A stretch of DNA of 64,000 nucleotides from an uncultured Actinomycetes bacterium (GCA_963767005.1 CAVYCN010000012.1:32001-96000), one strand, 5' to 3'; numbered from the stretch's first letter, positions 19,481-53,539 are shown. Numbers and translations: made by a program. The notes: a model not told the origin generated them from the letters alone.

Positions 19481-19484
19481 GGTC

Positions 19485-22373: not shown

Positions 22374-22526
22374 AGCGCTCACACGCTCCTGTCGCACTTG
22401 CAGGGTGGGGCGCGGCCCGGAGCATGCAAGGTGGCGCTCCATCACGAACGCCTGCCCGAGCGGCCTGGCCGCCGCCACCGTCGTCGGCGACCAAGCCGAC
22501 GCATCGGCCCGTGGGCCGACCGCGCG

Positions 22527-22611
22527 ACGCTACGCCGAACGGCGTTAAGAGTCCATAAAATCACGCGCCGTCAGTATAAAGAACCTGTTAAGGTGTGAAG
22601 TATCCGTAAAG
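22527..22611 (-). promoter_or_regulatory. Four-box promoter A (P-type ATPase/trkA operon) plus an extra box pair
   Basis: Boxes at 22543/22554/22575/22586; -10 TAGCGT at 22527-22532; extra pair at 22594/22605. Confidence 0.7.
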
Positions 22612-22627
22612 GTGACAGGCGGCCGAC

Positions 22628-23791
22628 CTACTCGGTCTCGCGCACCGTCTTGCTGGGATCGGCCACCACGAGCACGTCGACATCCTGGGTCTCGCGCATG
22701 ATCCGCGCAATCAGCGACGAGCCGCGCAGTACCTCGTCCATGCGCGAGCGTTTGGACTGACCCATGACGACGAACGTCGCGCGGTGCTCGTGCGCGAAGT
22801 GCAAGATGGCCTCGTCTTCGGAGTCACCGGACAGCTCCACTACCTCGCCGCCCAGGTTGCGCGTGAGGTCGAAGAGCTCGGTGAGCTCGTCGTGATGACG
22901 CCCGAGGGTCTCCCCCGGCGTGTGCACGTGGATGACCCAGAAATGTCCCTGGAGGCGCTTGGCCAGGCGGTAGCCGCGCCGCACGAGCTTCTTCGCCACC
23001 GGCCCCGCCTTGATGCACACCACGACGCGGTCCTCGGTGGCCCAGGGAGTCTCGATCTCGTGCTCCTCGATGTAGTGCTCGAGGCTCTCGTCGACCTCCT
23101 CAGCCGTCTTGCGCAGGGCGAGCTCGCGCAGGGCCACCAGATTGCCGCGGCGGAAGAAGTTGCTGAGCGCCCCGGGGATCTTCTCGAGATCGTAGACGAC
23201 GCCCCGGTTCAGCCGGTTGATGAGGGCGTCGGCCGTGAGGTCGACCAGCACCACCTCGTCGGCGCGGTCGAGGATGCCGTCGGGTAGCGTCTCGCGCACG
23301 CGCACCGAGGTGATCTGGTAGATCGTGTCGTTCAGGCTCTCGAAGTGCTGGACGTTGACGGTCGAGAGCACGTCGATGCCGGCCGCCAGGATCTCCTCGA
23401 CGCTCTGCCAGCGCTTCTCGTGCTTGGTGCCGGGGATGTTCGTGTGAGCGAGCTCGTCGACCAGCACGACCGCCGGCCGGCGGGCGATCACGGCCGCCGT
23501 GTCCATCTCTTCGAACATGCGGCCGCGATACTCGAGCGTCTTGCGCGGGACGATCGACAGGCCCTCGGCGAGCTCGGCGATCGCCTTGCGGCCGTGCGTC
23601 TCGACGAAGCCGATCACGACGTCCTCGCCGCGCTCGGCACGCCGGCGCGCCTCGGAGAGCATGGTGAAGGTCTTGCCGACGCCCGGCGCGTAGCCCAGGA
23701 AGATCTTGTGGCGTCCCCGGTTGCGCAGGGTGCGCAGCGCTATTTGCTCACCGGGTCCGGTGCCGCCGGGAGGCGGGTCGGCGGCGGCCAT
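22628..23791 (-). CDS. kdpD: Stand-alone N-terminal half of KdpD (KdpD domain plus USP domain)
   Basis: GYAPGVGKT, ETHGR, VDELAHTN, KRWQ, NVQHFESLND, LRELALR; no TM or kinase domain. Confidence 0.9.
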   Translation of the reverse strand: MAAADPPPGGTGPGEQIALRTLRNRGRHKIFLGYAPGVGKTFTMLSEARRRAERGEDVVIGFVETHGRKAIAELAEGLSIVPRKTLEYRGRMFEEMDTAAVIARRPAVVLVDELAHTNIPGTKHEKRWQSVEEILAAGIDVLSTVNVQHFESLNDTIYQITSVRVRETLPDGILDRADEVVLVDLTADALINRLNRGVVYDLEKIPGALSNFFRRGNLVALRELALRKTAEEVDESLEHYIEEHEIETPWATEDRVVVCIKAGPVAKKLVRRGYRLAKRLQGHFWVIHVHTPGETLGRHHDELTELFDLTRNLGGEVVELSGDSEDEAILHFAHEHRATFVVMGQSKRSRMDEVLRGSSLIARIMRETQDVDVLVVADPSKTVRETE

Positions 23792-24363
23792 CAGGGCGAC
23801 GCGACGTCGAGCGCCAGATCGAGCTGAAGCACGTTCACCGTGGGCTCGCCGAGGAAGCCGAGCTCGCGCCCGGCCGTGTGCTTCGCGATCAGGGCGAGCA
23901 CCGCGGCGACGCTCATGCCGCGAGCGGCCGCCACGCGCGGCGCCTGGGCGCGCGCGTTGGCGATCGTGATATCGGGGTCGAGCCCGCTGGCTGACGTCGT
24001 CACCATGTCGATCGGCACCTGTCCGAACCTGAGGCCGGGATCGGCTGCGATGTCGGCCTTGACCGCCGCCTTGACCCGGTCGGCGAGCGCCCTGCTCGTC
24101 GGGCCGAGGTTCGAAAACGACGAGTCCATCCCATCGTATCCCTTGCCCGCCGCGGAGGGTCGCGGCCAGAAGTAGCGCGGCGCGGTGAAGTCCTGACCGA
24201 TCAGGCTCGAGCCGATCACCACGCCGTTCTTCTTGATCAGGCTACCGTCGGCCTTGCCGGGAAAGACGACCTGGGCGACGCCGGTCATCGCCAGGGGGTA
24301 GATGATCCCCAGCAGGATCGCGCTCACGACCGTCATGCGAATGGCTGTCCAGACGTACTTCAC
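23791..24363 (-). CDS. kdpC: K+-transporting ATPase subunit C (copy 1)
   Basis: YFWPRPSA, TSASGLDPDI, GEPTVNVL. Confidence 0.95.
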   Translation of the reverse strand: MKYVWTAIRMTVVSAILLGIIYPLAMTGVAQVVFPGKADGSLIKKNGVVIGSSLIGQDFTAPRYFWPRPSAAGKGYDGMDSSFSNLGPTSRALADRVKAAVKADIAADPGLRFGQVPIDMVTTSASGLDPDITIANARAQAPRVAAARGMSVAAVLALIAKHTAGRELGFLGEPTVNVLQLDLALDVASP

Positions 24364-24374
24364 GTCACGCTCCC

Positions 24375-26501
24375 TCAGGTCGTCAGGTGGAGGGCCACCA
24401 GGATGAGGTCGATGATCTTGATGCCGATGAAGGGCGCGACCACGCCGCCCAGGCCGTACACGAGCAGATTGAAGCGCAGCAGGGCTGCGGCGCCGATCGG
24501 CCGGTACTTCACGCCGCGCAGCGCGAGCGGGATCAACATGACGATGATGAGCGCGTTGAAGATGACGGCCGACAGCACGGCGCTGTGCGGCGAGTGCAGC
24601 CCCATCACGTTGAGCGGGCGGAGCTGCGGGAAGGCGACCATGAACATCGCCGGGATGATGGCGAAGTACTTGGCCACATCGTTGGCGATGCTGAAGGTGG
24701 TGAGCGCCCCGCGCGTGATCAGGAGCTGCTTGCCGATCGCCACGATCTCGATGAGCTTGGTCGGGTTGGAGTCGAGGTCGACCATGTTGCCGGCCTCCTT
24801 GGCGGCCGACGTGCCCGAGTTCATGGCGACGCCGACGTCGGCCTGAGCCAGGGCCGGCGCGTCGTTCGTGCCGTCGCCGGTCATCGCCACCAGCTTGCCC
24901 TGCTGCTGCTCCGAGCGGATGAGCTCCATCTTGGCTTCGGGTGTGGCTTCGGCCAGGAAGTCGTCGACGCCGGCTTCCTTGGCGATCACGGCCGCCGTGA
25001 GCGGGTTGTCGCCCGTGATCATCACGGTGCGGATGCCCATGGCGCGCAGCTCGTCGAAACGCTCGCGGATGCCGCCTTTGACGATGTCCTTCAGGTGGAT
25101 CACGCCGAGCACCTGATCGTTGCGGGCGACCGCCAGCGGCGTGCCGCCCTGCAGCGAGACGGCTTCGATCGAGCGCTCGAGCTCGGTCGGCACCGTGCCG
25201 CCGCGCTGCCTGATCCAGGCGATGACGGCCTCGCCGGCGCCTTTGCGGATGGACTGACCGTCGAGGTCGATGCCGCTCATGCGCGTCTGGGCGGTGAACT
25301 CGACGAACGTCGCCTTGTCCGGGTCGATGTGCCGGGCGCGGATGCCGAAATCCTTGGCGAGCACGACGATCGAGCGCCCTTCGGGCGTCTCGTCGGCCAG
25401 CGAGGCGAGCTGCGCCGCGTCGGCCAGCTCGGCCTCGGTCACGCCCGGCATGGGGATGAACTCGGCCGCCTGCCGGTTGCCCAGCGTGATCGTGCCGGTC
25501 TTGTCGAGCAGCAGCGTGTCGACGTCGCCGGCGGCCTCGACCGCGCGCCCGCTCGTGGCGAGCACGTTGTGGCGCACGAGGCGGTCCATGCCGGCGATGC
25601 CGATGGCCGCGAGCAGGCCGCCGATCGTGGTCGGGATGAGGCAGACGAGCAGGGCGATCAGCACCGTCGGCGACTGCGGCGCGTGGTCGTAGATGGCAAA
25701 CGGCTCGAGCGTCATGATCACGATCACGAAGATGATCGTGAGGGCGGCGAGCAGGATGGTGAGGGCGATCTCGTTGGGCGTCTTCTGGCGCTGCGCGCCC
25801 TCGACCAGGCCGATCATGCGGTCGAGGAAGCTTTCGCCCGGGTTCGTGGTGATCTCGACCCTGATCTGATCGGAGAGCACCTTCGTGCCGCCCGTCACGG
25901 CGCTGCGGTCGCCGCCGCTCTCACGGATCACCGGGGCCGACTCGCCGGTGATCGCCGACTCGTCGACCGAGGCGATGCCCTCGATCACCTCGCCGTCGCC
26001 GGGGATCACCTCGCCGGCGCTCACCAGGACGATGTCGCCGCGACGAAGCTGGCCGGCCGGCACCTGGGTGACCGTGCGGTCGGTCACGAGGTTGGCGTAG
26101 GTCTCGGTGCGCATCTTGCGCAGGGCGTCGGCCTGGGCCTTGCCGCGGCCCTCGGCCATGGCCGTCGCGAAGTTGGCGAAGAGCACCGTGAACCAGAGCC
26201 AGCCGGTGACGGCGCCGACGAAAGCGGTGTCGGAGCTCGAGTGGACGAGGCCGAGGACAAAGTAGTAGCTCGTGATGACACTGCCGACCTCGACCACGAA
26301 CATGACGGGGTTGCGCGCGACGTCGCGCGGATCGAGCTTGCGGAACGAGCTCGCGATAGCCGGCCAGACGAGGCCCTTCATCGAGGCCTCGTTGCGGATC
26401 GTCACACGCTCTTTGCGCGGCTCCGGCTCGGGCGGCGTGACGGGCAGCGGTCGACCCTGCTCGTCGTCGGGCACGCCGGGCTCCTGTCGTTCGTCAGTCA
26501 C
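24375..26501 (-). CDS. kdpB: K+-transporting ATPase subunit B (copy 1)
   Basis: [44 protein letters not shown]. Confidence 0.97.
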
Positions 26502-26504
26502 GGC

Positions 26505-28235
26505 TCACCCACCGAACAGCTTGCCGGCGTTCATCAGGAAGTGCTCGACGATGGGGCCCAGGGCGAAGGCCGGGAACCAGGTCAGCGCGCCGACGATGAG
26601 GATCACGCCGACGAGCAGCACGACGAAGATGCCGCCCGTCGTGGGGAACGTGCCGGGCGACGGCGGCACCGACTTCTTGCCGGCCAGCGAGCCGGCCAGG
26701 GCGAGGCACGGGATGATGAAGAAGTAGCGGCCCCACATCATGCAGAGGCCGCCGATCGTGCTCCAGAAACGGCCGCTCGCGGTGAGGCCGGCGAAGGCGC
26801 TGCCGTTGTTGCCGGTCTGCGAGATCGTGCCGTAGAGGATCTCGGACAGGCCGTGGGGCCCCGCGTTCAGGGCGGCGTCCTTGCCGGCCGGCACGACCGC
26901 GGCCAGGGCGGCGAAGCCCAGCGCCGTGACGCAGAAGTAGAGCACGGCAAGCGAGGCGAGCTTCATCTCGCGGCCTTCGATCTTCTTGCCGAGGTATTCG
27001 GGCGTGCGGCCCACCATGAGCCCGGCGATGAAGACCGCCAGGATGGCGTTGACGAGCAGCCCCATGATGCCGACCCCAACGCCGCCGAACACCACCTCGC
27101 CGAGCGCGATGTTCAGCATGGCCATCATGCCCGCCAGCGGCGTGAGGCTGTCGTGCGACGCATTGACGGCGCCGCACGACGTGTCGGTGGTCGTCGTCGC
27201 CCACAGGACGGAATCGGCGATGCCGAACCGGACCTCCTTGCCCTCCATGTTGCCGCCGGACTGGGTCGCCGTGAGCTTCTCGGTGGCGCCCGCCTTGGCG
27301 AGGATCGGGTTGCCGCGCTGCTCGCTCGCGTACATCACGCCCACGCTGATCAGGAGGATGACCATCGCCGCGGCGAAGAGCGCCCAGCCCTGTCTCTGGT
27401 TGCCGGCGTACCGTCCGAACGTGTAGGTGAGCGCGACGGGGATGGCCAGCAGCGCGAGGTCCTCGATGAAGTTCGTGAGAGGCGATGGGTTCTCATACGG
27501 ATGCGCCGAGTTCGCGTTGTACGTGCCGCCGCCGTTAGTGCCGAGCTCCTTGATGATCTCCTGCGAGGCGAAGGGGCCCTGGGCGATGGTCTGCACTGTG
27601 CCCTGGACGGTAACGGCGTGGGTCGGGCCGTTCAGGTTCTGGACGACGCCCTGCGACACGAGAAACAGGCCACCGACGATCGAGATCGGCAGCAGGACGT
27701 AGAGGAAGCTGCGGGTCATGTCGACCCAGAAGTTGCCGAGGTGGCGGCCCGAGTGGCCGGTGACGCCGCGGATGAAGGCGACGGCGACGGCCATGCCGAC
27801 CGCGGCCGACACGAAGTTCTCGCGCGCCAGAGCGAGCATCTGCGAGAGGTAGCTCACCTGGCTTTCGGGCACGTAGACCTGCCAGTTGGTGTTGGTCGCG
27901 AAGCTGATCGCCGTGTTGAACGCGACCGTCGGGCTCATGTCGGGGATGTGCGCGGGGTTGAAGGGCAGGTGACCCTGCAGACGGAGGATCACGTACATGA
28001 AAAGCAACACGGCGAGGTTGAACACGAGCAGCGAGACGGCGTAGGCGGTGACCCCCATCTCGCGCGTCTCGTCGACGCCGCACAGCCGGTAGATGAGACG
28101 CTCGACCGGCTTGAGCGCGGGGTCGAGGAACGTGCGCTCGCCGCGGAAGACGTGAGCCATGAAGACGCCGAGCGGCTTCGCGATCAGCGCGAGCAGCACG
28201 ACGTAGAGGACGATCTGCGCTATCCCCCAGCCCAT
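26505..28235 (-). CDS. kdpA: K+-transporting ATPase subunit A (copy 1)
   Basis: NTNWQ, GTNGGG, SCGAVN, NNGSAF filter motifs; GRTPEYLGKK. Confidence 0.97.
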   Translation of the reverse strand: MGWGIAQIVLYVVLLALIAKPLGVFMAHVFRGERTFLDPALKPVERLIYRLCGVDETREMGVTAYAVSLLVFNLAVLLFMYVILRLQGHLPFNPAHIPDMSPTVAFNTAISFATNTNWQVYVPESQVSYLSQMLALARENFVSAAVGMAVAVAFIRGVTGHSGRHLGNFWVDMTRSFLYVLLPISIVGGLFLVSQGVVQNLNGPTHAVTVQGTVQTIAQGPFASQEIIKELGTNGGGTYNANSAHPYENPSPLTNFIEDLALLAIPVALTYTFGRYAGNQRQGWALFAAAMVILLISVGVMYASEQRGNPILAKAGATEKLTATQSGGNMEGKEVRFGIADSVLWATTTTDTSCGAVNASHDSLTPLAGMMAMLNIALGEVVFGGVGVGIMGLLVNAILAVFIAGLMVGRTPEYLGKKIEGREMKLASLAVLYFCVTALGFAALAAVVPAGKDAALNAGPHGLSEILYGTISQTGNNGSAFAGLTASGRFWSTIGGLCMMWGRYFFIIPCLALAGSLAGKKSVPPSPGTFPTTGGIFVVLLVGVILIVGALTWFPAFALGPIVEHFLMNAGKLFGG

Positions 28236-28247
28236 GACCCCCGGCCC

Positions 28248-28337
28248 TTAGAAGCGCTCCGGACGGAGCAGTGCGTAGAAGAGGTAGAGGATGAGGACGA
28301 AGGCGACGATGCCGAGGACGAGGTACGCGACGTTCAC
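28248..28337 (-). CDS. kdpF: KdpF peptide (copy 1), 29 aa
   Basis: Manual translation MNVAYLVLGIVAFVLILYLFYALLRPERF; AGGAG RBS. Confidence 0.9.
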   Translation of the reverse strand: MNVAYLVLGIVAFVLILYLFYALLRPERF

Positions 28338-28347
28338 GTGCACGCTC

Positions 28348-28431
28348 CTACAGCCGCGGCGCGATGCGGGCGTAGCCGAACGAGAGCGCGAAGAACGCGA
28401 CGACGACCAAGAGATACACGAGATCACCCAC
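28348..28431 (-). CDS. 27-aa hydrophobic peptide upstream of kdpF (copy 1)
   Basis: MGDLVYLLVVVAFFALSFGYARIAPRL; GGGGAG RBS; stop overlaps the kdpF RBS. Confidence 0.75.
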   Translation of the reverse strand: MGDLVYLLVVVAFFALSFGYARIAPRL

Positions 28432-28568
28432 GCCTGCGACTCCCCAAGACTCCTGTCGGCGAGCGGACTCCCCGCGTGCGCCGCGGGCAGCCTACCCAGA
28501 AACTCGTACCTGCTTAACCTGTGAGCGTGCCGCCCGCCGATTGCTCGACGACGACACGAACGGCAGGC

Positions 28569-28634
28569 AGCCTACCCGCCCCCACGTAAGGAGCGCGTGA
28601 ATGAACGGGCTCGCGGTGTGAAGAATGCGTAAAG
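28569..28634 (-). promoter_or_regulatory. Four-box promoter B (kdp operon 1)
   Basis: Boxes at 28585/28596/28617/28628; -10 TAGGCT at 28569-28574. Confidence 0.75.
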
Positions 28635-28678
28635 GTCTTAACACCCGCCACGCAGTCCCTGCGACAGCCGCAGACGCA

Positions 28679-28720
28679 AGCGGGGCGGCGCGCCCCTACG
28701 GGCGCGCCGCCCCGCTGCTT
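28679..28720. terminator. Hairpin downstream of the 28761-28994 gene
   Basis: 17-bp perfect stem, TAC loop. Confidence 0.6.
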
Positions 28721-28760
28721 TCACACGACGGCCGAGAAAACCGGCGCCGCCGGCCGCCCT

Positions 28761-28994
28761 TCAGGACGACGCGGCGTGATGATGTCGCGCGATGCTCGGC
28801 CGTAGGCCTTGGGTGATGGCGACGCGGGCGCCATGCGACGCGGTGCGGGGCTCCGCGACCGCGCTCGCGCGCCGGCCGTCGGATGCGGCGCGCTCACGCA
28901 CCGTCACGTAGACGAGGTAGGCGAGACAGGACACCACGGCCAGTAACGCCAGGGCGAACACTCCGTCGATCACGGCGATCCCCAGATCGGTCAT
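28761..28994 (-). CDS. Small single-TM protein
   Basis: GAGGAGG RBS; N-terminal TM segment; own four-box promoter and downstream hairpin. Confidence 0.65.
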   Translation of the reverse strand: MTDLGIAVIDGVFALALLAVVSCLAYLVYVTVRERAASDGRRASAVAEPRTASHGARVAITQGLRPSIARHHHAASS

Positions 28995-29030
28995 GCTCAA
29001 GCGCCTCCTCGCGAGAACTCCACGATGGTC

Positions 29031-29096
29031 AGGCTACCCAGGCACTCGTTAAGGGTCCGTGAAGAGGGCTTGTCGCACCGTTAAGGAACCCTAAAG
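29031..29096 (-). promoter_or_regulatory. Four-box promoter C
   Basis: Boxes at 29047/29058/29079/29090; -10 TAGCCT at 29031-29036. Confidence 0.75.
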
Positions 29097-29137
29097 GCGC
29101 GCGGCTGGGTCTCGCCGGGACGCTCGACGGCGGCCGC

Positions 29138-29203
29138 CTTTCGGCACTCTTTATGACGCCGCCGAGGTGCTTCACGCGTCCTTAAGCACGTCCGGGGGAT
29201 GGT
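29138..29203 (+). promoter_or_regulatory. Four-box promoter D
   Basis: Boxes at 29138/29149/29170/29181; weak -10 GATGGT at 29198-29203. Confidence 0.65.
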
Positions 29204-29239
29204 GGTCGCAGGCAAGTCGGTCCTTCAAAGGAGCAAACG

Positions 29240-29662
29240 ATGAAGCACATCGTGGACACCTCGAGAGCCGCCCGCGCGGGCCTGCTCGCGCTCGGCGCCT
29301 TCGCCGTGGTGTCCGTGGTCGGAGCCGCGCCGCCGCTGGCCATGGGCTTCTCGGCGCTGCGCACGCCCGGGCGAGGGCTGTCTCTGCCCGTCCAGGGCTC
29401 GAGCGGAGGCGTGTCGTGGCTCGGCATCGTCGTGCTGGTCGCGATCGTCGCCGGCGCGACGGCCTTCGGCGTCAGCGGCTGGCGCCACAGCCGGCGGACC
29501 GCGCAGTCCGTCGCATGGGACGTTTCGACGGACGGGTCATCCGACAGGACCGCGCCGCCCGAGCCGACCGTGCGCCCCTCGGCGTCGAGGCCGCTGCCGA
29601 GCCGCGCCCCGGCCGGCGTACACGCGCGTCGCGTCGGTGGCCGGCGCGACCAGAGACTGTAG
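29240..29662 (+). CDS. Small protein with signal-peptide-like and TM segments
   Basis: AAAGGAG RBS; two hydrophobic segments. Confidence 0.65.
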   Translation: MKHIVDTSRAARAGLLALGAFAVVSVVGAAPPLAMGFSALRTPGRGLSLPVQGSSGGVSWLGIVVLVAIVAGATAFGVSGWRHSRRTAQSVAWDVSTDGSSDRTAPPEPTVRPSASRPLPSRAPAGVHARRVGGRRDQRL

Positions 29663-29769
29663 AGGCGAAGGCCCAAGAGGCGGTACCCGCGAGCGGCGTG
29701 CAAGGATCCAAAGCACGGAGGCGCTGCAGGACAGCCTGTGAGAGCGCCACGCCGTGGGCGGGACCTGGC

Positions 29770-29805
29770 TCGAGGCCGCCGGACCGCGAGGTCCGGCGGC
29801 CTCGA
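29770..29805. terminator. Hairpin between convergent genes
   Basis: 16-bp perfect stem, GCGA loop. Confidence 0.65.
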
Positions 29806-29811
29806 CCCGTG

Positions 29812-30555
29812 TCAGACGAGCTCGCCGCCGGCGTCGCCCTGAGCGTTCGGCGCGGGCTCGGGGACCGAGAGCCGAAAGCCGACCCCCGGTTCGGTGATGA
29901 TGTAGCGCGGACCCGCCGGCGAGGGCTCGATCTTCTTGCGCAGATGGCTCACGTGCACGCGCAGCGTCTGCGCGTCTTCGACCCACTCCGGACCCCAGAC
30001 GTGCTCGAGGATCATCTTCTGCGTGACCACGAGGTCGGCGTTGCGGGCCAGGAACGCGAGGATGTCGAACTCGGTGGGGGTGAGGGCGACCTCGGCGCCG
30101 GCCAGCGTGACGCGGCGGCGCGCGATGTCGATCGACAGGTCGCCGGCCACGACGACCGGCGGCGGCGAGGTGAGCGCCGCCGCGCGCCGCAGCAGCGCGC
30201 GGATGCGGGCCAGCAGCTCGCCGGCCGAGAACGGCTTGGTCAGGTAGTCGTCGGCGCCCTCGTCGAGCGCCTTGATCTTGTCGGCCTCGGCGGAGCGCAC
30301 CGACAGGATGAGGATCGGGGCCGTCATCCAGGTGCGCAGCTCGCGACAGACCTCGATGCCGGTGCGGTCGGGCAGCATGAGGTCGAGCACGACGAGATCG
30401 GGGGGGTCGTCGATCGCCTTGATCAGCGCCTCTTCGGCGGTGGAGGCCAGTGAGAGCTGATAGCCGCGAGAGCCGAGGATCGACTGCAGAGCGCGACGGA
30501 TCTGCTCTTCGTCGTCGACGGCGAGAATGCGTGTCGGCCGCTCGGGAATGCTCAT
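29812..30555 (-). CDS. kdpE: OmpR-family response regulator KdpE
   Basis: VDDEEQIRR, LDLMLPD, GADDYLTKPF, LRVHVSHLRKKIE, YIITEPGVGFR; kdp context. Confidence 0.9.
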   Translation of the reverse strand: MSIPERPTRILAVDDEEQIRRALQSILGSRGYQLSLASTAEEALIKAIDDPPDLVVLDLMLPDRTGIEVCRELRTWMTAPILILSVRSAEADKIKALDEGADDYLTKPFSAGELLARIRALLRRAAALTSPPPVVVAGDLSIDIARRRVTLAGAEVALTPTEFDILAFLARNADLVVTQKMILEHVWGPEWVEDAQTLRVHVSHLRKKIEPSPAGPRYIITEPGVGFRLSVPEPAPNAQGDAGGELV

Positions 30556-30681
30556 CGCCCTCCTCCTCGTCCTCGTGTGCCGTGCCGGGCGCTCCGTGAC
30601 CCGGGGCCTCCGCCGGCGGGCTGCGCCGCTAAGCATGACACTCGCAGACGTTTCCCGGAATGTCGGGCTTCGTGTCCGCCC

Positions 30682-30747
30682 CTTTAGTCACCTTTAACGA
30701 CGCGACCGGGCCCCTTTAGCCGTTCGCAACGAGGCCCCGGGTAGCCT
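30682..30747 (+). promoter_or_regulatory. Four-box promoter E
   Basis: Boxes at 30682/30693/30714/30725; -10 TAGCCT at 30742-30747. Confidence 0.7.
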
Positions 30748-30793
30748 GAGTTCGATGCCGGCGTCACCGGTGTCCAGGACTGGGAGGACCACC

Positions 30794-31069
30794 ATGATGA
30801 GTGTCATCGAGATCGCCGCCGTCTTCGCGGTCGCCATCGTCGCGGTGGTCGCCGTCTATTCCCTCCACACCAGGTCGCTCGCCCGCGAGGTGGACCGCGC
30901 CCGACGCGATCGCCTGGTCGCTCTCGCACGCTCGTGCCCGACCGGCGAGCAGGCCGCTCCGCTCGAGCAGCACCTGGCGCCCGTGCTGCAGTTCTCGATC
31001 GCGCAGCTCCACTGGGCGGAGCGCTCGAAGACCGAGCGCCCCGCCGAGCTCATCAAGGCCGCGCACTAG
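30794..31069 (+). CDS. Small single-TM protein
   Basis: GGGAGG RBS; N-terminal TM segment. Confidence 0.65.
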   Translation: MMSVIEIAAVFAVAIVAVVAVYSLHTRSLAREVDRARRDRLVALARSCPTGEQAAPLEQHLAPVLQFSIAQLHWAERSKTERPAELIKAAH

Positions 31070-31790
31070 CGCCCACCGCGGCCGTCGTGCGCCGGGTGTC
31101 GTAACCGACACCGAGCGTCGCCGATGGGCCGGGACAGTACACGAGCGGATACGCGGCGGCCAGAAGATCGTCCCAACTCTTCGTCGCGCGGCGCGCGATC
31201 GCGGCCGACGGCACGCCCGGACGACCGGCGCGCCAGGCTTCGTAGCGCACCACGCTCGGGTACCTGCCAAGCTCCCGCCAGGCGGCGGCGATCGCCTCGA
31301 CTACGTCCGTAGGGCCGTAGGTCGCGCGAGGACCGCTGCGTACGTTGGTCGGGAGACCGGCTTGCGCCAGCGCCCGACGCCAGCCGCCAAACCTCAGCCT
31401 GATCACTTCGGGTCCCGGGTGCCGACGGCCGTCGCTGTCCCGCAGCGCCCACGCGCGATACGGCTCGATGGCCACCGGAGTGACCAGCTCGAGGGCCGCC
31501 GCACGCAGTGCATCCAGCAAGTCCTCGTCAGAGTAGATCGAGCTTGTGGTGCGCCGCGCGCGTCGCAGCACGCGGGCCTCGGGCACGCGCAGGTCGACGA
31601 GCCGACGCACGTGGGCCGTCCGCAGCCCGAGGGCGCTGGCCGTCGCGACGTCGCTGCGCAGTTCGAGGAAGGTCGCGACGATCTCGTCCTCGCGGCCCTC
31701 GACCGCTTGCCGGTGGCGCTGTTCCCGGAGGGGCACCGCTTGCACATCGTGGCGCGCGGTAGGCGTGAGGGGCATTGCCGCGAGGGTCAC
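31053..31790 (-). CDS. Protein with two homing-endonuclease-associated (HNH_repeat-like) repeats, no nuclease domain seen
   Basis: YSDEDLLDALRAAA..P...Y......P....RFGGWRRALAQAGL and a second copy YGPTDVVEAIAAA..PS...Y......PS......SWDDLL. Confidence 0.65.
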   Translation of the reverse strand: MTLAAMPLTPTARHDVQAVPLREQRHRQAVEGREDEIVATFLELRSDVATASALGLRTAHVRRLVDLRVPEARVLRRARRTTSSIYSDEDLLDALRAAALELVTPVAIEPYRAWALRDSDGRRHPGPEVIRLRFGGWRRALAQAGLPTNVRSGPRATYGPTDVVEAIAAAWRELGRYPSVVRYEAWRAGRPGVPSAAIARRATKSWDDLLAAAYPLVYCPGPSATLGVGYDTRRTTAAVGASARP

Positions 31791-31849
31791 GCTCCGGTCT
31801 CTCCGATCCGCGTCCGGGCAACGCTACGCGCGGTGCCTCGTGGGAGCGA

Positions 31850-31915
31850 AAGATACTCCCGCCCACATTGCAGCGGTCTAAAGGTCGGCGCGCGCCGCGT
31901 TAAGGCCGCATAAAG
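31850..31915 (-). promoter_or_regulatory. Four-box promoter F
   Basis: Boxes at 31866 (degenerate)/31877/31898/31909; -10 TATCTT at 31850-31855. Confidence 0.65.
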
Positions 31916-31976
31916 CCCGCGGGGGGGTGGGCCGCAGCCTACCGCCCCCGCGGGCCGGAGTGCGGGAGAACCGCCC

Positions 31977-34034
31977 TCAGGCGCCGAGCACGTTGTGCAC
32001 GACGAGATCGATCAGCTTGATGCCGATGAATGGCAGCACCATGCCGCCAAGACCGTAGATCAGGAGGTTGCGCCGCAGCAGGGCGGTGGCTCCGATCGCC
32101 CGGTAGCGCACACCCTTGAGGGCGAGCGGCACGAGCGCCGGGATGATCAGGGCATTGAAGATCACGGCCGAGATGATCGCGCTGCGCGGGTCGCCCAGAT
32201 GCATGACGTTGAGGGCGCTGAGGGGGCCGTGCTGGCCGGGGTGCTTCGCGTAGGTGAAGGCGAACATCGCCGGCAGGATGGCGAAGTACTTGGCCACGTC
32301 GTTGGCGATCGAGAAGGTGGTGAGCGCGCCTCGCGTGATGAGCAACTGCTTGCCCACCTCCACGATCTCGATGAGTTTCGTGGGGTCGTTGTCGAGGTCG
32401 ACCATGTTGCCGGCCTCCTTGGCGGCGCTCGTGCCGGCGTTCATGGCCACGCCCACATCGGCTTGTGCGAGCGCCGGAGCGTCGTTCGTGCCGTCGCCGG
32501 TCATCGCCACCATGCGACCCTCGTCCTGCTCCGACCGGATCAGGGCGAGCTTGGTCTCGGGCGTGGCCTCGGCCAGATAGTCGTCGACGCCGGCCTCGTG
32601 GGCGATCACCGCGGCGGTCAGATGATGGTCGCCGGTGACCATGACGGTGCGGATGCCCATCTTGCGCAAGTCGTCGAAGCGCTCGCGCATGCCGGTCTTG
32701 ACGACGTCCTTCAGATGCACGACCCCCAGTGCCGTCCTGTTTCTGGCGACCACGAGCGGTGTGCCGCCCCGCTCGGCGACACGCTGTACGGCCTCATCGA
32801 TCGCGCTGCCTGGGGCCTCGCCGCCGTTCTCGGCGATGAACGCCTTGACGGCATCGGCGGCGCCCTTGCGGATCTTCGTGCCGTTGAAATCGACGCCGCT
32901 CATGCGAGTCACGGCGGTGAAGGGCACGAAGCGGGCATCGGTAGCCACCTCGCGTTGCACCTCGTACTGATCGAGTGCGAGGGCGACGATCGAGCGCCCC
33001 TCGGGCGTCTCGTCGGCCAGCGAGGCGAGCTCGGCCGCCTCTGCCAGCTCGCGCGCGTCGACCCCGGGCGCCGGGATGAACTCGGTCGCCTGGCGGTTGC
33101 CCAGGGTGATCGTGCCGGTCTTGTCGAGGAGCAGCACGTCGACGTCGCCCGAGGCCTCGACCGCGCGGCCCGACATGGCGAGCACGTTGCGCTGCACGAG
33201 GCGGTCCATGCCGGCGATGCCGATCGCCGAGAGCAGCGCCCCGATCGTGGTGGGGATGAGCGCAACGAGCAGGGCGATCAGCACGGTCTGCGACACGTTG
33301 GTGTGGGCGTAGAGCGCGTAGGGACGCAGCGTGGCGACCGCCACGAGGAAGGTGATCGTGAGGCCGGCGAGCAGGATGTTCAGGGCGATCTCGTTGGGCG
33401 TCTTGCGCCGCTCGGCACCCTCGACGAGGACGATCATGCGGTCGAGGAACGACTTGCCGGGCTCCTGGGTGACCTCGACCACGAGGCGGTCGGAGAGCAG
33501 CCGCGTGCCGCCGGTGACCGCCGAGCGGTCGCTCCCTGCCTCGCGGATCACGGGCGCGGACTCGCCGGTGATCGCCGACTCGTCTATCGAGCCGACGCCA
33601 TCGACGATCTCGCCGTCGGCCGGCACGAGCTCGCCGGCCACGAGCTCGACCACGTCGCCCTTGGCGAGCTGCGGTGCGGGCACGTCTTCGAGCGCCCCTG
33701 TCGCGGTCCGTCGGTGGGCGACGGTGGTCGTCCGGGTGGCGCGCAGCGCGCTCGCCTGCGCCTTGCCGCGACCCTCGGCGATCGCCTCTGCGAAGTTCGC
33801 GAAGAGCACGGTGAGCCACAACCATACCGAGATGGTGGCGACGAACCAGAGCTGCCCGGTGCGGCCCTGCGCCAGGTCGATGAAGAAGATCCCGCTCGTG
33901 ATCAGGCTGCCGACCTCGACCACGAACATCACCGGGTTGCGCACCTGGTGGCGCGGGTCGAGCTTGGGAAACGAGTCGCGCACGGCCGCCAGGACGAGCT
34001 GTCGCGAGAAGATGCTGGAACGGCGCGCTGCCAT
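31977..34034 (-). CDS. kdpB: K+-transporting ATPase subunit B (copy 2)
   Basis: [29 protein letters not shown]. Confidence 0.97.
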
Positions 34035-34621
34035 CAGTTGCCTCCGATCCGGTCGAGCGCGAGGTTGAGCGTCAGGACGTTGACGCCCGGCTCGCCGAAC
34101 AGGCCGAGACTGCGCCCGGTCGTGTTCTGCTTGATGAGCCGCTCGACTGTGGCGAGCGGCAGGTGACGCACCGCGGCGACGCGGTGCGCCTGGAGTCGCG
34201 CGTAGGCCGGCGAGATGTCGGGGTCGATGCCGGAGCCGGACGTGGTCACGGCGTCGACCGGGATGTCGCCGATGGTGAGGCCGGGGTCGTAGGGCCGCTC
34301 GAGCACGAGCACGGCCTGCGCCTGCTTGCGAACCGCCTGCGCCAGCGCCGGATTGGTCGGCCCGAGATTGGCGAACGTCGTGCCAGCAGCATCGTAGGCG
34401 GGCGTCGTGCCCGAGGGCCGCTCGTGGAAGTAGCGCGGTGCGGTGAAGCTCTGCGCGGCGAGCGCCGAGCCGACGACCACGCCATTGCGGTAGAGCAGGC
34501 TGCCCGCAGCCTTGGCCGGGAAAGCCAGCGAGGCGAAGCCGGTCATGAGCGCGGGGTAGGCGAGGCCGAAGACCGCGGTGATCACGACGATGCCGATGAG
34601 TGAACGAATGAGCGTACGCAT
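34034..34621 (-). CDS. kdpC: K+-transporting ATPase subunit C (copy 2)
   Basis: [26 protein letters not shown]. Confidence 0.95.
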
Positions 34622-34622
34622 G

Positions 34623-36311
34623 TCAGTGAACCAGGGATTCGACGATGGGCCCGAGGCTGAGCGCGGGCAGGATCATGAGGCCGGCGGTGAGCGCGACCAC
34701 GCCGACGAGCAGCACGGCGAAGGTCGGCCCGTCGGTGCGGAAGGTGCCGGCGGACACAGGCGCGACCTTCTTACGCGCGAGCGAGCCCGCGAGCGCGAGG
34801 CCGGCCAGCATCGGCACGAAACGACCAAGGTACATGGCCACCGTGCCGAACGATTCCGAGAACGTGGTGGCACCATAGCCGGCGAAGGCGCTGCCGTTGT
34901 TGTTGGCCTGCGACGTGTAGGCGTAGAGCGTCTCGGTGAAGCCGTGCGCTCCAAGGTTGAAGACCGAGGCGAGGCCGGCCGGCGCGGCGATCGCGACGGC
35001 GGTCATGACGAGCACCATGGTGGGCACGAAGAGCGCGCCGAGCGCGGCGAACTTGACCTCGCGGGCCTCGATCTTCTTGCCGAGCCACTCCGGCGTACGA
35101 CCCACCATGAGCCCGGCGACGAAGACGGCGATCAGGATGTAGAAGAACATACCGATCAGGCCGGTGCCGACGCCGCCAAAGATCACCTCGCCGACGAACA
35201 GATTGACGAGGGGCACGGCCCCGCCGGCCGCCGTCTGGGCGTCGAAGCCGCCGTTGACCGAGCCGTTCGAGGCGTCGCTCGTGGCGACCGTCCAGGTGGT
35301 GGTGCCCGCGATGCCGAAGCGGACCTCCTTGTCGGCCATGTTGCCGCCGCTCTGGCCACCGGACGCCACGAGATTCACGCCGGAGTCGCGCAGCACCGGC
35401 GAGGCGTGCTGCTCGGCGGCGAGGTTCACGCCGATGCCTATCACGAACATGGCACTCATCGCCGCGAACACCATCCAGGCGTGGCGGCGCGCCTTGACCA
35501 TGCGGCCGAACATGAAGACCTGGGCGACCGGGATCAACAGGATGGCGATCATCTCGACGAAGTTCGAGAGGCCGGTCGGGTTCTCGAACGGCACCGCCGA
35601 GTTCGAGTTGTAGAAGCCGCCGCCGTTGGTGCCGAGCTGTTTGATTGCGATCTGCGAGGCGACGGGGCCGCGGGCGATCGCCTGATGGGCCCCTTGCAGA
35701 GTGGTCGCCGTGGCGTGGCCGGCGAGCGTCTGCGGCACGCCTTGCGACACGAGAACGACCGCGACGACGACCGACAGCGGCAGGAGGACATAGACGAGCG
35801 ACCGGTAGAGGTCGCGCCAGAAGTTGCCGAGCCTGCTGCCCGAGCGCAGCGCGAGGCCGCGCACGACGGCGGCCAGGACGGCCATGCCGACCGCCGCCGA
35901 GACGAAGTTCTGTACGGCGAGGCCGGCCATCTGGCTCAGGTACGACATCGTCGCCTCGCCGGCGTAGAACTGCCAGTTCGTGTTGGTAATGAAGCTGGCG
36001 GCGGTGTTGAGGGAGAGCGGCGACGGGACGGCCTTCATGTGGTCGGGGTTGACCGGCAGGTGACCCTGCAGCCGCAGGATCGCGTAGAGCACGGCCGAGA
36101 AGGCGACGCTGAACACCAGGACGGTCACGGCATAGCGCTTCCAGCTCTGGTCGTCGCCGCTGCCCCGGCCGAGCAGCCGGAAGAAGCCGCGCTCGACGAC
36201 GTCGTCGCGCCTGCGCGAGTAGACCCAGGCCATGTATCGCCCCAGCGGGTAGGCGAGAGCGATCAGCACCGCCGCGTAGAGCACGATCTGGCCGATGCCT
36301 TCGGCGGTCAT
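34623..36311 (-). CDS. kdpA: K+-transporting ATPase subunit A (copy 2)
   Basis: NTNWQ, GTNGGG, SNGSVN, NNGSAF; ATG overlaps the kdpF stop. Confidence 0.95.
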   Translation of the reverse strand: MTAEGIGQIVLYAAVLIALAYPLGRYMAWVYSRRRDDVVERGFFRLLGRGSGDDQSWKRYAVTVLVFSVAFSAVLYAILRLQGHLPVNPDHMKAVPSPLSLNTAASFITNTNWQFYAGEATMSYLSQMAGLAVQNFVSAAVGMAVLAAVVRGLALRSGSRLGNFWRDLYRSLVYVLLPLSVVVAVVLVSQGVPQTLAGHATATTLQGAHQAIARGPVASQIAIKQLGTNGGGFYNSNSAVPFENPTGLSNFVEMIAILLIPVAQVFMFGRMVKARRHAWMVFAAMSAMFVIGIGVNLAAEQHASPVLRDSGVNLVASGGQSGGNMADKEVRFGIAGTTTWTVATSDASNGSVNGGFDAQTAAGGAVPLVNLFVGEVIFGGVGTGLIGMFFYILIAVFVAGLMVGRTPEWLGKKIEAREVKFAALGALFVPTMVLVMTAVAIAAPAGLASVFNLGAHGFTETLYAYTSQANNNGSAFAGYGATTFSESFGTVAMYLGRFVPMLAGLALAGSLARKKVAPVSAGTFRTDGPTFAVLLVGVVALTAGLMILPALSLGPIVESLVH

Positions 36312-36400
36312 CAGAGCCGCTCCCCACGAAAGAGGGCGAAGACGAGGTAGGCGGCCAGCGCGGCCGAAACCGCGAGGCCGAAGATATCTGCGGGCGCCAT
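36311..36400 (-). CDS. kdpF: KdpF peptide (copy 2), 29 aa
   Basis: MAPADIFGLAVSAALAAYLVFALFRGERL; TGATG overlaps at both ends. Confidence 0.85.
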   Translation of the reverse strand: MAPADIFGLAVSAALAAYLVFALFRGERL

Positions 36401-36483
36401 CACACACGCTCCAGGACGTAGAGGATCAGGGCGAGAAACGCAAAGCAGGCGAGCACGATGGCGATCGCCGCGATGTCGAACAT
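36400..36483 (-). CDS. 27-aa hydrophobic peptide upstream of kdpF (copy 2)
   Basis: MFDIAAIAIVLACFAFLALILYVLERV; GGAGGG RBS; TGATG overlap with kdpF. Confidence 0.8.
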   Translation of the reverse strand: MFDIAAIAIVLACFAFLALILYVLERV

Positions 36484-36818
36484 GGTCGTCCCTCCGGTCT
36501 CACCAAGCAGGTGGCGTCGGGAGCGCGGCGGAGCAGCCGCGCTCCCGGCCTGTCGGCCGCCGGACGCGACGAGTGGCTCCGGGAAGGCTCACCGCGCGCG
36601 ACGGGTACGATCGCGGGAGGCCGCGCTCACCGATGAGGAGCGCCGGCACCGCGGCGAGGAAGCGGGCTGCGGGCCGGATGCGACATCTGCCGACCGGCCT
36701 CGCACGAGACCTCTCATGCTGGCACCTCCACCGCCGAGGAGCCGCAGCGCCCCTGTCGGGGCGACCGGCGAGCGTCCGTCCGGCGACGAAGACTTCTGGA
36801 TTCGTGTTCCCCGGCACT

Positions 36819-36868
36819 CGTAACGAGTTCGTGAAGGAGGGCCGCCGTGCCGTAAAAGTGTCGTGAAC
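36819..36868 (-). promoter_or_regulatory. Four-box site G (kdp operon 2)
   Basis: Boxes at 36819/36830/36851/36862; no clear -10 at the usual distance. Confidence 0.65.
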
Positions 36869-36958: not shown

Positions 36959-38536
36959 CTAGGACTCGCTGCGCGGAGCGGTCTCGGCGGCCTCGTCGGG
37001 CAGGCCGATCACGAAGCGGGCGCCATGCGGCACGACGTCCTCGACGTGGATGCCGCCGCCGTGGGCGCGCACGATCTCGCGGGTGATCGCCAGGCCGAGA
37101 CCCGTGCCAGAGCGCACCTTCATGCCGGTCCTGCCGCCGCGGTAGAACTTCTCGAACACGGCCTCGTGCTCGTCGGCGGCTATGCCGGGGCCCTCGTCTT
37201 CGACCCAGAGCCGCACGCCGCGGCCGGCGGCCTCGGCGCCGACGCGCAGGAGGCCGTTGCCGGCGTACAGCATGGCGTTCTCGAGCAGGTTCTGAAACAC
37301 CCGCACGAACTGTTCAAAGTCGACGCGCAGCGGTGGGAAGTCGTCGGGCACGGCGACGATCACCCGGTCCCGCTCATGGACCGGCAGGGCGGCGAGGCCG
37401 GCGGCGAGGATATCGGAGATTTCGTAGAGCTCGAGGTGCGGCTCCCAGGCGCGCGCCTCGAGACGCGAGAGATCGAGCAGCGCCGTGATGCTGTTGTTGA
37501 GACGGGCCACGTCGGAGACGATGGCGCGCAGCTCGTCGCGCACGCTCCGCTCGTTCCAGGGCACGTCGCCTTCGAGCAGGTTGCTGACCGTCGCCGTGAG
37601 GGCGGCGAGCGGCGTCTTCAGCTCGTGTGACACCGATGAGAGCAGGCTCGACTTGAGGCGATCGGCCTCGCGCAGCGCCTCGGCCGCCGTCGCCACCGTC
37701 TGCAGGCGCTGGCGCTCGAGGAAGGTCGCGATCAGGTTGGCGAGCGCGGCGAGCAGGCGGCCGTCGGCGTCATCGTAGGGTCGGCCGTTCCGCCGGCCGG
37801 CGACGCTCAGGACCCCGACGACTCCGAGCGCGCCGCGCAGGGGAAGAAAGATCCCGCCGCTGCCCTCGGGCACCTTGAAGCCCTCGACCGGCGGCCCGGC
37901 GCCGGCGGTCTCGGCGAGCGTCTGTCGCGGCAGGCCGACCGGCTCGCCGTGCATGTACACCCAGTGCGCCACCCTCGTCGCTCCGCTGTCGGGCTCGTCC
38001 GACGCCGGCGTCACGCAGAACCTGGTGAGCTCGTCGTCGCTGCCGACGAAGAGCGTCGCCGACGCGGCGCCGAGCAGCGTCACTATCTCGCCGAGGATCG
38101 TCTCGGCCATCTCGCCCGTCGAAGCCTGTGAGACAAGACCCGCGGAGAGCCGGTTGAGCGCGGCCGTCTCGTGCTCGCGAGCCAGGGCGCGCGCCTCGCG
38201 GTCTCTCATGCGTCCGGTCTGCACGCCCATGACGACGCCCACCGCCAGGAAGGCAACGAGGGACAGCCAGTCCTTGGGGTCCTGGACCGTGAGCGTGTGG
38301 TACGGCGGCAGGAAGAAGAAGTCCCAGGCGAAGAAGCCCAGCACGGCGGCCAGCACGGCGGGTCCGGCGCCGCTCGCCCCCGCGACGAGCACGACGATGA
38401 GCAGGTAGAGCAGCGCCCACTGCCCCTTGGCGAAGGTGTCGCGGCCCGGCAGGAACAGGGCAGTCGACAGCCCGATCGCCAGGAGGGCGAGCCAGTAGCC
38501 GTGGGCGGCGAGTGTCGTGAGCGTGCGTCGCAGCAT
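36959..38536 (-). CDS. kdpD: C-terminal half of KdpD: four-TM (DUF4118-like), GAF and histidine kinase domains
   Basis: DFFFLPPYHTL, SSVSHELKTPL, NLLENA, DEGPGI, GTGLGLAI; lacks the KdpD and USP domains. Confidence 0.88.
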   Translation of the reverse strand: MLRRTLTTLAAHGYWLALLAIGLSTALFLPGRDTFAKGQWALLYLLIVVLVAGASGAGPAVLAAVLGFFAWDFFFLPPYHTLTVQDPKDWLSLVAFLAVGVVMGVQTGRMRDREARALAREHETAALNRLSAGLVSQASTGEMAETILGEIVTLLGAASATLFVGSDDELTRFCVTPASDEPDSGATRVAHWVYMHGEPVGLPRQTLAETAGAGPPVEGFKVPEGSGGIFLPLRGALGVVGVLSVAGRRNGRPYDDADGRLLAALANLIATFLERQRLQTVATAAEALREADRLKSSLLSSVSHELKTPLAALTATVSNLLEGDVPWNERSVRDELRAIVSDVARLNNSITALLDLSRLEARAWEPHLELYEISDILAAGLAALPVHERDRVIVAVPDDFPPLRVDFEQFVRVFQNLLENAMLYAGNGLLRVGAEAAGRGVRLWVEDEGPGIAADEHEAVFEKFYRGGRTGMKVRSGTGLGLAITREIVRAHGGGIHVEDVVPHGARFVIGLPDEAAETAPRSES

Positions 38537-53288: not shown

Positions 53289-53354
53289 CTTTATAGGGTC
53301 TTGACGGCGACGGCGCCCCCGTTCACGGGTCCTTACGCCCGGCGCTGCCATCAT
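53289..53354 (+). promoter_or_regulatory. Four-box promoter H, outside the kdp island
   Basis: CTTTATA 53289, CTTGACG 53300, GTTCACG 53321, (C)CTTACG 53331-53337; -10 CATCAT at 53349-53354. Confidence 0.65.
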
Positions 53355-53515: not shown

Positions 53516-53539
53516 GCGTGAGGTCGACGGAGACGACGC

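Follow-up and report, generated by a model that had tools for sequence, protein, structure and literature searches.

Nine arrays of four seven-base boxes, all with the same rigid spacing, were found in the genome of a soil bacterium from a Thermoleophilia family. With a probability of roughly 0.8, we consider them to be promoters activated by the response regulator KdpE; under potassium limitation, two dimers of its phosphorylated form are predicted to dock on each array. All nine are located on the contig carrying kdpE and seven lie inside 14 kb. The window, i.e., the whole stretch analysed, comprises 64,000 nt of this 3.44-Mb genome. All 28 boxes and the -10 slots of the seven sites previously noted (A to G) were re-read letter for letter, and their uniform spacing was confirmed: the boxes begin at offsets 0/11/32/43 and the -10 slot at +60. 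Minus-strand positions in the preliminary description refer to the low end of box 1.

22527..22592, minus strand: site A, CTTAACA/CTTTATA/TTTTATG/CTTAACG + TAGCGT, preceding the P2C-like ATPase-trkA-trkA operon
22594..22611, minus strand: CTTTACG/CTTCACA, an additional pair of boxes at -19/-8 from site A, possibly a third dimer site
28569..28634, minus strand: site B, CTTTACG/CTTCACA/ATTCACG/CCTTACG + TAGGCT, preceding kdp operon 1
29031..29096, minus strand: site C, CTTTAGG/CTTAACG/CTTCACG/CTTAACG + TAGCCT, preceding orfC
29138..29203, plus strand: site D, CTTTCGG/CTTTATG/CTTCACG/CTTAAGC + weak GATGGT, preceding orfD
30682..30747, plus strand: site E, CTTTAGT/TTTAACG/CTTTAGC/CGCAACG + TAGCCT, preceding orfE and divergent from kdpE
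31850..31915, minus strand: site F, CTTTATG/CTTAACG/CTTTAGA/TGCAATG + TATCTT
36803..36868, minus strand: site G, GTTCACG/TTTTACG/CTTCACG/CGTTACG with AACACG in the -10 slot, preceding kdp operon 2
53289..53354, plus strand: site H, four boxes + CATCAT, no ORF downstream
C12:11482, plus strand: site I, beyond the window, from the genome scan

Two of the checks proposed in the preliminary description, a genome scan and shuffled controls, bore the motif out. A pooled 7-bp box matrix run over the whole genome added sites H and I to the seven; the nine score 24.6-45.0 bits and the next match, at 14.3, is a shifted overlap of site E. Left out of the model one at a time, the seven noted sites ranked 1, 2, 1, 1, 3, 1 and 1 among 6,871,126 positions, while 20 strand-scans of locally shuffled genomes topped out at 11.1-20.4, one of them reaching 20. 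Among 112 spacing combinations, 11/21 retrieved 9 sites scoring at least 20 and any other at most 5; the alternative 8/25 was rejected, its 5 matches being palindromic repeats. The spectrum of distances between boxes has its maxima at 11, 21, 32 and 43. Moreover, a model built solely from 82 sites of relatives placed the nine at ranks 1-9 of 6.87 million positions (44.9-23.5; next 16.7).

The genes and elements surrounding these sites are the following.

18177..18839, minus strand: TrkA-type RCK protein 2
18827..19546, minus strand: TrkA-type RCK protein 1, given as the longest ORF; the true start is probably later
19485..22382, minus strand: P-type ATPase with a Na,K/H,K-ATPase-like ion site (VPEGL; FSHNMAE; IDLGSD; CQVGN)
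22628..23791, minus strand: N-terminal half of KdpD, which carries the KdpD sensor and Usp domains and closes kdp operon 1
23791..28235, minus strand: kdpA1-kdpB1-kdpC1 (26505-28235, 24375-26501 and 23791-24363)
28248-28337, minus strand: kdpF1
28348-28431, minus strand: hydrophobic 27-aa leader ORF
28761..28994, minus strand: orfC, a 77-aa single-pass membrane protein without Pfam match, with homologs downstream of relatives' four-box sites
29240..29662, plus strand: orfD, a hydrophobic 140-aa ORF, no homologs detected in the loci searched
29812..30555, minus strand: kdpE, OmpR-family response regulator retaining the equivalents of E. coli KdpE R193/H198/R200
30794..31069, plus strand: orfE, a 91-aa single-pass membrane protein
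31053..31790, minus strand: protein with a homing-endonuclease-associated repeat (PF18780), downstream of site F
31977..36483, minus strand: kdp operon 2 (27-aa leader ORF, kdpF2, kdpA2, kdpC2, kdpB2), open frames
36959..38536, minus strand: C-terminal half of KdpD, a DUF4118-GAF-HisKA-HATPase kinase
53361..53520, plus strand: hairpin-rich stretch without ORF downstream of site H, ending at the terminator of a convergent gene; a candidate small RNA

The likely targets are the two kdp operons, the Na,K-ATPase-like pump with its two TrkA proteins, and the small single-pass membrane ORFs. The site count rises from the eight first proposed to nine, but the claim that at least eight units are activated is not borne out because site G lacks a -10, site D is absent from the closest relative (G011) and site H has no ORF. 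Rfam at gathering threshold matched one tRNA only across the window, sites H and I and two look-alike loci, so a 6C RNA or riboswitch reading is unsupported.

The arrays are probably promoters. In relatives, a sigma-70-type -10, TAnnnT, lies 10 nt past box 4 in 65 of the 82 sites and TA at +60 in 70, the -10 having been held out of the motif model; other offsets show TA in at most 8 and TAnnnT in at most 2 of the 82. Across the same sites, columns 39-42, the -35 slot, carry nearly zero information, boxes 3-4 equal boxes 1-2 in the strength of their TT.A core, and box 3 favours CTTCAC, with C in 60/82. Site G and its orthologs have no recognisable -10, sites D, H and I show merely nAnnnT in the slot, and nAnnnT at +60 is missing from 16 of 100 sites. 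Taking GGGTA at +57 for a SigF-type element was rejected because 70/82 sites retain the T at +65 and no box occurs 15-17 nt upstream. Compared with G011, where site A is conserved, identities reach 93/96 in the TT.A core, 203/224 in the boxes and 24/24 at the key -10 bases, versus 184/256 in the spacers.

KdpE is likely the reader of the motif. Two KdpE dimers set three helical turns apart and activating genes beyond kdpFABC, as initially suggested, remain the best reading of the predicted binding, because the distal pair aligns with the footprinted E. coli KdpE site, the motif co-occurs with a kdpE ortholog, the regulator encoded in the window is alone among 7 aligned OmpR-type regulators in having R193, and K+ transport genes predominate among the targets in relatives (an APC-Usp transporter with a TrkA pair, TrkH, a cation/H+ exchanger). 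The R193 comparison covers the 7 of 18 OmpR-type matches of this genome that align across the whole recognition helix. KdpE is the best-scoring NCBIfam family for this regulator, although its score of 231.6 stays below the equivalog cut-off of 325. Family-wide, the motif occurs in 54/54 genomes with a kdpE ortholog and 10/35 without (21/21 and 0/11 among high-quality genomes), a co-occurrence that partly reflects physical linkage; related genomes, moreover, are not independent. Of the loci with a close kdpE ortholog, 47/48 have a site, against 1 weak match in the 32 whose regulator is distant.

The E. coli K-12 promoter kdpFp shares the layout. It reads TTTTATA/TTTTACA/TTTTGCG/CTTTGCA + 10 nt + TACCCT, i.e., 0/11/32/43 with the -10 at +60, so that its box offsets to the -10 match those of site B. 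Common to both systems are TTTA(T/C)A-type half-sites 11 bp apart, the -10 distance and the target kdpFABC. Boxes 1-2 are the half-sites published in PMC3264566, which portrays the operator as one 23-bp site for one dimer, with a footprint spanning -72 to -50 over the distal pair only (its -72 numbering and ours are 3 nt apart). The second pair is weak, its boxes carrying G at the core A, and we found no description of it in the passages of PMC3264566 consulted; the Sugiura 1992 footprint or Fig. S3 could mention the pair. E. coli KdpE is portrayed as a single-target regulator (PMC5934670). Here, in contrast, each promoter has two pairs, both strong, there are nine sites, and KdpD is split.

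The layout is also encountered in other phyla. Upstream of kdpA, the best pair spacing is 31-33 in 42/50 regions, versus 41/300 and 127/1000 in controls (13-14%), and further beta/gamma-proteobacterial regions show a spacing of 32 in 5/6; the proteobacterial sample consists of plasmid/chromid records, and a class-wide search centred on G397 gave 8 genomes. Misses were L101, L103, L057, L074, Rhizobium, Acetobacter, Paracoccus, Sphingomonas, Deinococcus, Roseomonas and Raoultella. The Sphingomonas and Deinococcus loci start with a gene other than kdpA. Orientation, first said to follow the downstream gene always, does so in this genome, whereas the whole array is inverted relative to kdpA in 17/33 Actinomycetota kdpA regions. 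The 22-bp M. smegmatis KdpE motif, called unlike that of E. coli in PMC5401905, is in reverse complement CTTGATG-n4-CTTTACG, that is, one box pair; it is described there as a single site.

We propose that KdpE would be phosphorylated by the split KdpD, whose kinase half is encoded at 36959-38536 and whose sensor/Usp half at 22628-23791. A first KdpE dimer would then sit head-to-tail on boxes 1-2, at about -72 to -55, the position of the E. coli footprint. A second dimer would occupy boxes 3-4, 32 bp or three turns downstream on the same face; these boxes, at about -40 to -23, overlap the -35 region as Pho-type dimer sites do. The proximal dimer would stand in for the missing -35 and, like PhoB and PmrA, touch sigma region 4; alpha CTD may occupy the 14-bp gap. 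Such a regulon would induce both KdpFABC pumps, the KdpD sensor half, the Na,K-ATPase-like pump with its two TrkA proteins, likely a K+ importer, and small single-pass membrane proteins that may act as accessory or feedback subunits.

It is unlikely that the distal pair alone is the KdpE site, the proximal pair being read by a second factor (PhoP-type, hybrid promoters) or being a mere sequence feature of the -35 region. The limited E. coli footprint fits this view, as do the preference of box 3, which resembles the Streptomyces PHO unit GTTCACC (PMC4415409), and the rise of E. coli KdpE output under phosphate starvation (PMC7657598). It is countered by the equal TT.A core of the two pairs, by the upstream regions of the two pstS genes of this genome, which fall outside the top 20 motif matches and show no TTCAC repeats by inspection, and by five Anaerolineae kdp loci in which the proximal pair is the strong one, 10 nt ahead of TATAAn. 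The E. coli proximal hexamers are not a normal -35 either, because they lie 9 or 20 nt from the -10 instead of 17.

It appears improbable that another OmpR/PhoB-family regulator (PhoP/RegX3, GlnR or MtrA type) reads all four boxes and governs the potassium genes within a larger regulon. The geometry is not exclusive to KdpE: a pstS promoter beside a PhoB-like regulator in G047 has the identical layout, and other contigs hold two TTAAC look-alikes with three boxes. GlnR likewise engages four protomers per promoter on two box pairs, contacting sigma R4, the beta flap and alpha CTD (PMC10235972), but its sites are six bases apart and flank the -35, whereas here a 14-bp gap separates the pairs and 10 nt lie between box 4 and the -10. 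PhoB and PmrA boxes likewise consist of 7+4 bp direct-repeat units, with a dimer that covers the -35 region (-25 to -41 at pstS) and contacts sigma region 4; they differ in box sequence and in having one dimer site or contiguous 11-bp units, and the excerpts consulted (PMC10570014, PMC4415409) describe no fixed second dimer three turns upstream. None of the nine sites precedes a nitrogen or phosphate gene, all are on the kdpE contig, the motif is absent from the 11 high-quality family genomes without a kdpE ortholog despite other OmpR-type regulators, and KdpE is proven to bind the E. coli counterpart. That the arrays are functionless copies of one duplicated or mobile segment, as the clustering of seven sites and two kdp operons in 14 kb and two near-identical copies in G015 might suggest, is highly improbable given that spacers vary while boxes keep register, that cores are better conserved than spacers relative to G011, and that the layout recurs in other phyla.

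A broader interpretation, to which we give rather less than even credence, would have KdpE promoters in general, E. coli and Actinomycetota included, follow the two-dimer, three-turn layout, kdpFp hiding a second, polymerase-facing KdpE site over the -35. This Thermoleophilia family would moreover have brought under KdpE a Na,K-ATPase-like pump that, equipped with two RCK subunits, serves as another primary importer of K+ and can replace KdpFABC; KdpE would also induce a small RNA and a family of single-pass peptides that tune the pumps or KdpD. The second dimer predicted over the -35 at kdpFp bears on the activation mode of KdpE. It also matters for designing a complex of KdpE with polymerase; in a previous cryo-EM attempt the KdpE density was lost, according to PMC10570014. 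The four-box layout would also reconcile the motifs of E. coli and M. smegmatis, supposed to be unrelated, and the rigid 12-base-core pattern should allow KdpE regulons to be found in uncultured genomes with few false matches.

The pump, likely a K+ importer together with its two TrkA proteins, would tie a K+-starvation regulator to the uncharacterised bacterial kin of the animal sodium pump, which hints at K+ uptake as its function. Among solved relatives, Na,K-ATPase alpha matches it best (505.8 bits, versus 484 for the Listeria Ca pump). In Na,K-ATPase alpha-1, the ion site presumably comprises E327, N776, E779, D804, D808 and Q923, along with S775 and, for the third Na+ site, D926. Aligned to it, the pump keeps the equivalents of the first six, in TM4-TM6 and at Q923, but has His at S775 and Asn at D926, where the P2C residues are not found; its ion is therefore not fixed by sequence. 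It further differs in that no beta subunit was seen and in scoring 587 bits against TIGR01106 (cut-off 946), below the 636 of a PMR1-type model. A single-sequence AlphaFold model has a pLDDT of 37.8, too low to be of use. Prokaryotic P2C pumps are termed uncharacterised in a 2023 review, and in S. mutans the Trk1 locus trkB-trk-pacL, which carries the annotation of a putative K+ system, similarly encodes a P-type ATPase beside two TrkA-type proteins; in the passages of PMC10654040 and PMC7082836 consulted, we found no description of KdpE control of either. The best 120 matches listed in a homolog search were just close relatives. Distant P2C-TrkA pump loci have a four-box site in 0/22 cases, and G018 has the pump and TrkA with kdpE ortholog and site both absent. 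Among deduplicated close homologs, 48/62 have their own four-box site and 14/62 none, and DLGSD is present in 61/61 aligned close homologs.

The four-box arrays, in which 7-bp boxes stand at offsets 0/11/32/43 and a -10 at +60, are real and conserved, and are most likely KdpE operators, a predicted binding that we hold at a probability of about 0.8. All seven arrays of the preliminary description (sites A to G) read in the sequence as described there, and the gapped-matrix scan of the genome and shuffled controls that it proposed left the four-box sites above background. With a pooled box matrix, nine sites scored 24.6-45.0 bits across the whole genome and the next match 14.3; shuffled genomes peaked at 11.1-20.4 bits. 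Leave-one-out ranks of the seven sites were 1-3 among 6,871,126 positions, and spacing 11/21 alone among 112 combinations yielded nine sites. The nine also took ranks 1-9 with a model trained only on 82 sites of relatives, a set that includes orthologs of the genome's own sites. All nine, including H and I, which are new from the genome scan, lie on a single contig, C12, in front of the following:

Site A, window: pump-trkA-trkA
Site B, window: kdp operon 1, including the KdpD sensor half
Sites C, D and E, window: small hydrophobic ORFs
Site F, window: PF18780 protein
Site G, window: kdp operon 2; no -10
Site H, window 53289: ORF-less, hairpin-rich stretch; retained only in G011, the closest relative
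Site I, C12:11482, outside the window: 64-aa ORF; ORF and site retained in several relatives

Besides two kdp operons and kdpE, the window, C12:32001-96000 with 71% G+C, contains kdpD in two pieces, one for the sensor/Usp half and the other for the kinase half, as well as a P-type ATPase gene followed by two TrkA-type genes. Neither kdpE nor the kinase half has its own site in this genome, and both have one upstream in some relatives. The ORFs behind sites C, D and E matched no Pfam family; overall, the first gene is a small single-pass membrane ORF at 59 of 100 sites versus 8 of 1000 random positions. The folding score of the site H stretch (z = -6.2) was computed with the convergent gene's terminator included. 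Relatives additionally carry sites upstream of the genes for TrkH, a cation/H+ exchanger, an APC-Usp transporter accompanied by a TrkA pair, and a cNMP-CBS-DUF294 protein; the nucleotidyltransferase-like gene for the latter adjoins kdp genes or the site I ORF in two relatives (L116:11691-13523, L118:3531-5408). A conserved 27-aa hydrophobic ORF before kdpF (window 28348-28431 and 36400-36483; no Pfam match) opens both kdp operons. Small ORFs flank kdp promoters in the window too, as does ybfA, a small DUF2517 gene divergent from kdpF in E. coli and K. aerogenes (L081:9135-9341, L285:23-229).

The closest kdpE relatives are, by record title, uncultured Thermoleophilia or Actinomycetes MAGs. Two loci titled Gemmatimonadaceae and Deltaproteobacteria (L022, L023) carry the same sites and a kdpE 85-86% identical to that of the window, and are possibly mis-binned Thermoleophilia contigs. 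Four-box sites occur in 47/48 loci surrounding close kdpE orthologs, and one weak match was found over 32 loci surrounding distant regulators. In the 82 sites of relatives, picked without use of the -10, unconstrained box-to-box distances peak at 11, 21, 32 and 43, the -35 slot is almost information-free, and +60 carries TA in 70 and TAnnnT in 65. G011 retains 8/9 sites, lacking site D, with identities to our genome of 93/96 in the core TT.A, 203/224 in the boxes, 184/256 in the spacers and 24/24 at the -10 key bases. The sites of the second kdp operon (kdpA-C-B order; window 36803-36808, L007:3690, L116:6762, L154:1179) all four have AACA(C/T)(C/G) in the -10 slot and, judging from these sequences, the absence of a sigma-70 -10 is itself conserved there.

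The assignment to KdpE draws first on E. coli, whose kdpFp reads TTTTATA cttt TTTTACA, 14 nt, TTTTGCG aaat CTTTGCA, 10 nt, TACCCT; boxes 1-2 coincide with the published KdpE half-sites TTTATA and TTTACA (footprint -72 to -50; PMC3264566). The M. smegmatis KdpE motif (PMC5401905) is in reverse complement one box pair of the array. Among 89 family genomes, the motif is present in 54/54 with a kdpE ortholog versus 10/35 without, the ten comprising three with frameshifted kdpE, two with AT-rich noise and five that are 61-82% complete. Restricted to genomes at least 90% complete and at most 5% contaminated, the figures are 21/21 versus 0/11, a co-occurrence that is partly physical linkage among genomes that are related and not independent. 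Of the genome's 18 OmpR-type regulator matches, seven aligned over the recognition helix, and the window KdpE alone among these has the equivalent of the KdpE-specific R193. The genome's own pstS upstream regions are not within the top 20 scan matches.

Counted against KdpE as the reader are its score of 231.6, under the NCBIfam KdpE cut-off of 325, the preference of box 3 for CTTCAC in the sites of relatives, and a pstS promoter in another genome, G047 (L147:1741, + strand). This promoter, divergent from a PhoB-like regulator gene, has the identical 0/11/32/43 plus 10 nt layout with TTCACA boxes, and the geometry may be common to several OmpR-family activators in Thermoleophilia.

Upstream of kdpA, the layout extends to other phyla. 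Across 50 such regions, scanned on both strands with the pair spacing allowed to vary from 22 to 45, the optimum fell at 31-33 in 42 (Actinomycetota 31/33, others 11/17) and at exactly 32 in 32, versus 31-33 in 41/300 random stretches and 127/1000 shuffles keeping the strongest pair. Further beta- and gamma-proteobacterial kdpA regions had spacing 32 in 5/6, and K. aerogenes retains TTTTGCG aaat CTTTGCG plus TACCCT although the spacers diverge. Individual scores in the cross-phylum set are sometimes modest (E. coli, 14.5). Of seven Chloroflexota or Planctomycetota kdp loci, two yielded no box pair; in the other five, TATAAn stands 10 nt downstream of the proximal pair, with spacing 32-33 in three of them. 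Orientation follows the downstream gene at the window sites, as first described, but not always beyond, the array being inverted relative to kdpA in 17/33 Actinomycetota regions. In L085-L088 the array is in sense, and the hexamers after it, AGGGTG for example, are not of the sigma-70 type; the inverted set lies within L089-L114.

Alongside the directly observed geometry, -10 position, conservation and gene content, we propose that KdpE~P dimers would occupy boxes 1-2 and 3-4 on the same helical face, the proximal one standing in for the -35 by analogy with PhoB (pstS -25 to -41) and PmrA, which replace it (PMC10570014). GlnR is a structural precedent for four-protomer activation, but at a spacing unlike that of the four-box sites (PMC10235972). 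In E. coli, where the footprint is confined to the distal pair, a proximal dimer would accordingly be weak or depend on polymerase. A second dimer site at kdp promoters was not found described in the available text of the KdpE literature searched (including PMC3264566, PMC5401905, PMC7657598, PMC5934670 and bioRxiv 2023.07.05.547876). E. coli KdpE has been termed single-target (PMC5934670); wider binding is reported in Caulobacter.

Among proteins of solved structure, the pump behind site A is closest to Na,K-ATPase alpha chains (505.8 bits, versus 484 for the Listeria Ca pump), and its VPEGL, SHNMAE, IDLGSD and CQVGN align with VPEGL, SNIPE, IDLGTD and the TM8 Q..D motif. In NCBIfam a Ca-pump model is slightly ahead, with no equivalog cut-off passed. 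Both shared ion sites are retained and the third Na+ site aspartate is absent; a His sits at what we take to be S775 of Na,K-ATPase. An upstream site occurs in 48 of 62 distinct close homologs (spacing 32 in 46); at least five of the other 14 are in loci also holding the KdpD sensor half. G018 (94% complete) combines the pump with the TrkA pair and lacks a kdpE ortholog, kdpA and any site; in five fragmented assemblies (G001, G004, G258, G259, G298) kdpE, sites and pump are present and kdpA was not found. Distant homologs (41-52%) have the TrkA pair in 16/20 Actinomycetota loci and a four-box site in 0/22 loci, and the predicted KdpE control of the pump is therefore lineage-specific. No KdpE-controlled P2-type pump was found described in the pump literature searched, where archaeal Na,K-ATPase genes are termed uncharacterised (PMC10654040) and S. 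mutans has an annotated TrkA-TrkA-ATPase locus (PMC7082836). Some Actinomycetota have tandem P2C-like ATPases with differing TM5 motifs (e.g., AHLTPE, ASNVPE) around one TrkA pair (L264, L263, L279).

Look-alike elements occur elsewhere in the genome. Paralogous three-box TTAAC promoters with offsets 11/32/43 (C4:226099-226255 and C18:111839-111986, both - strand; L138, L139) precede a short C-rich, ORF-less stretch with a terminator. The element, without an Rfam match at these two loci, has at least two copies in 12/12 genus genomes and is a candidate for a small RNA that is multi-copy and controlled by a different OmpR-type regulator. At two loci (C6:33993-34040, C9:26222-26269), paired palindromes CCTTACG-n-CGTAAG recur at a distance of 33 bp; they are possibly another regulator's operator or a mobile-element end.
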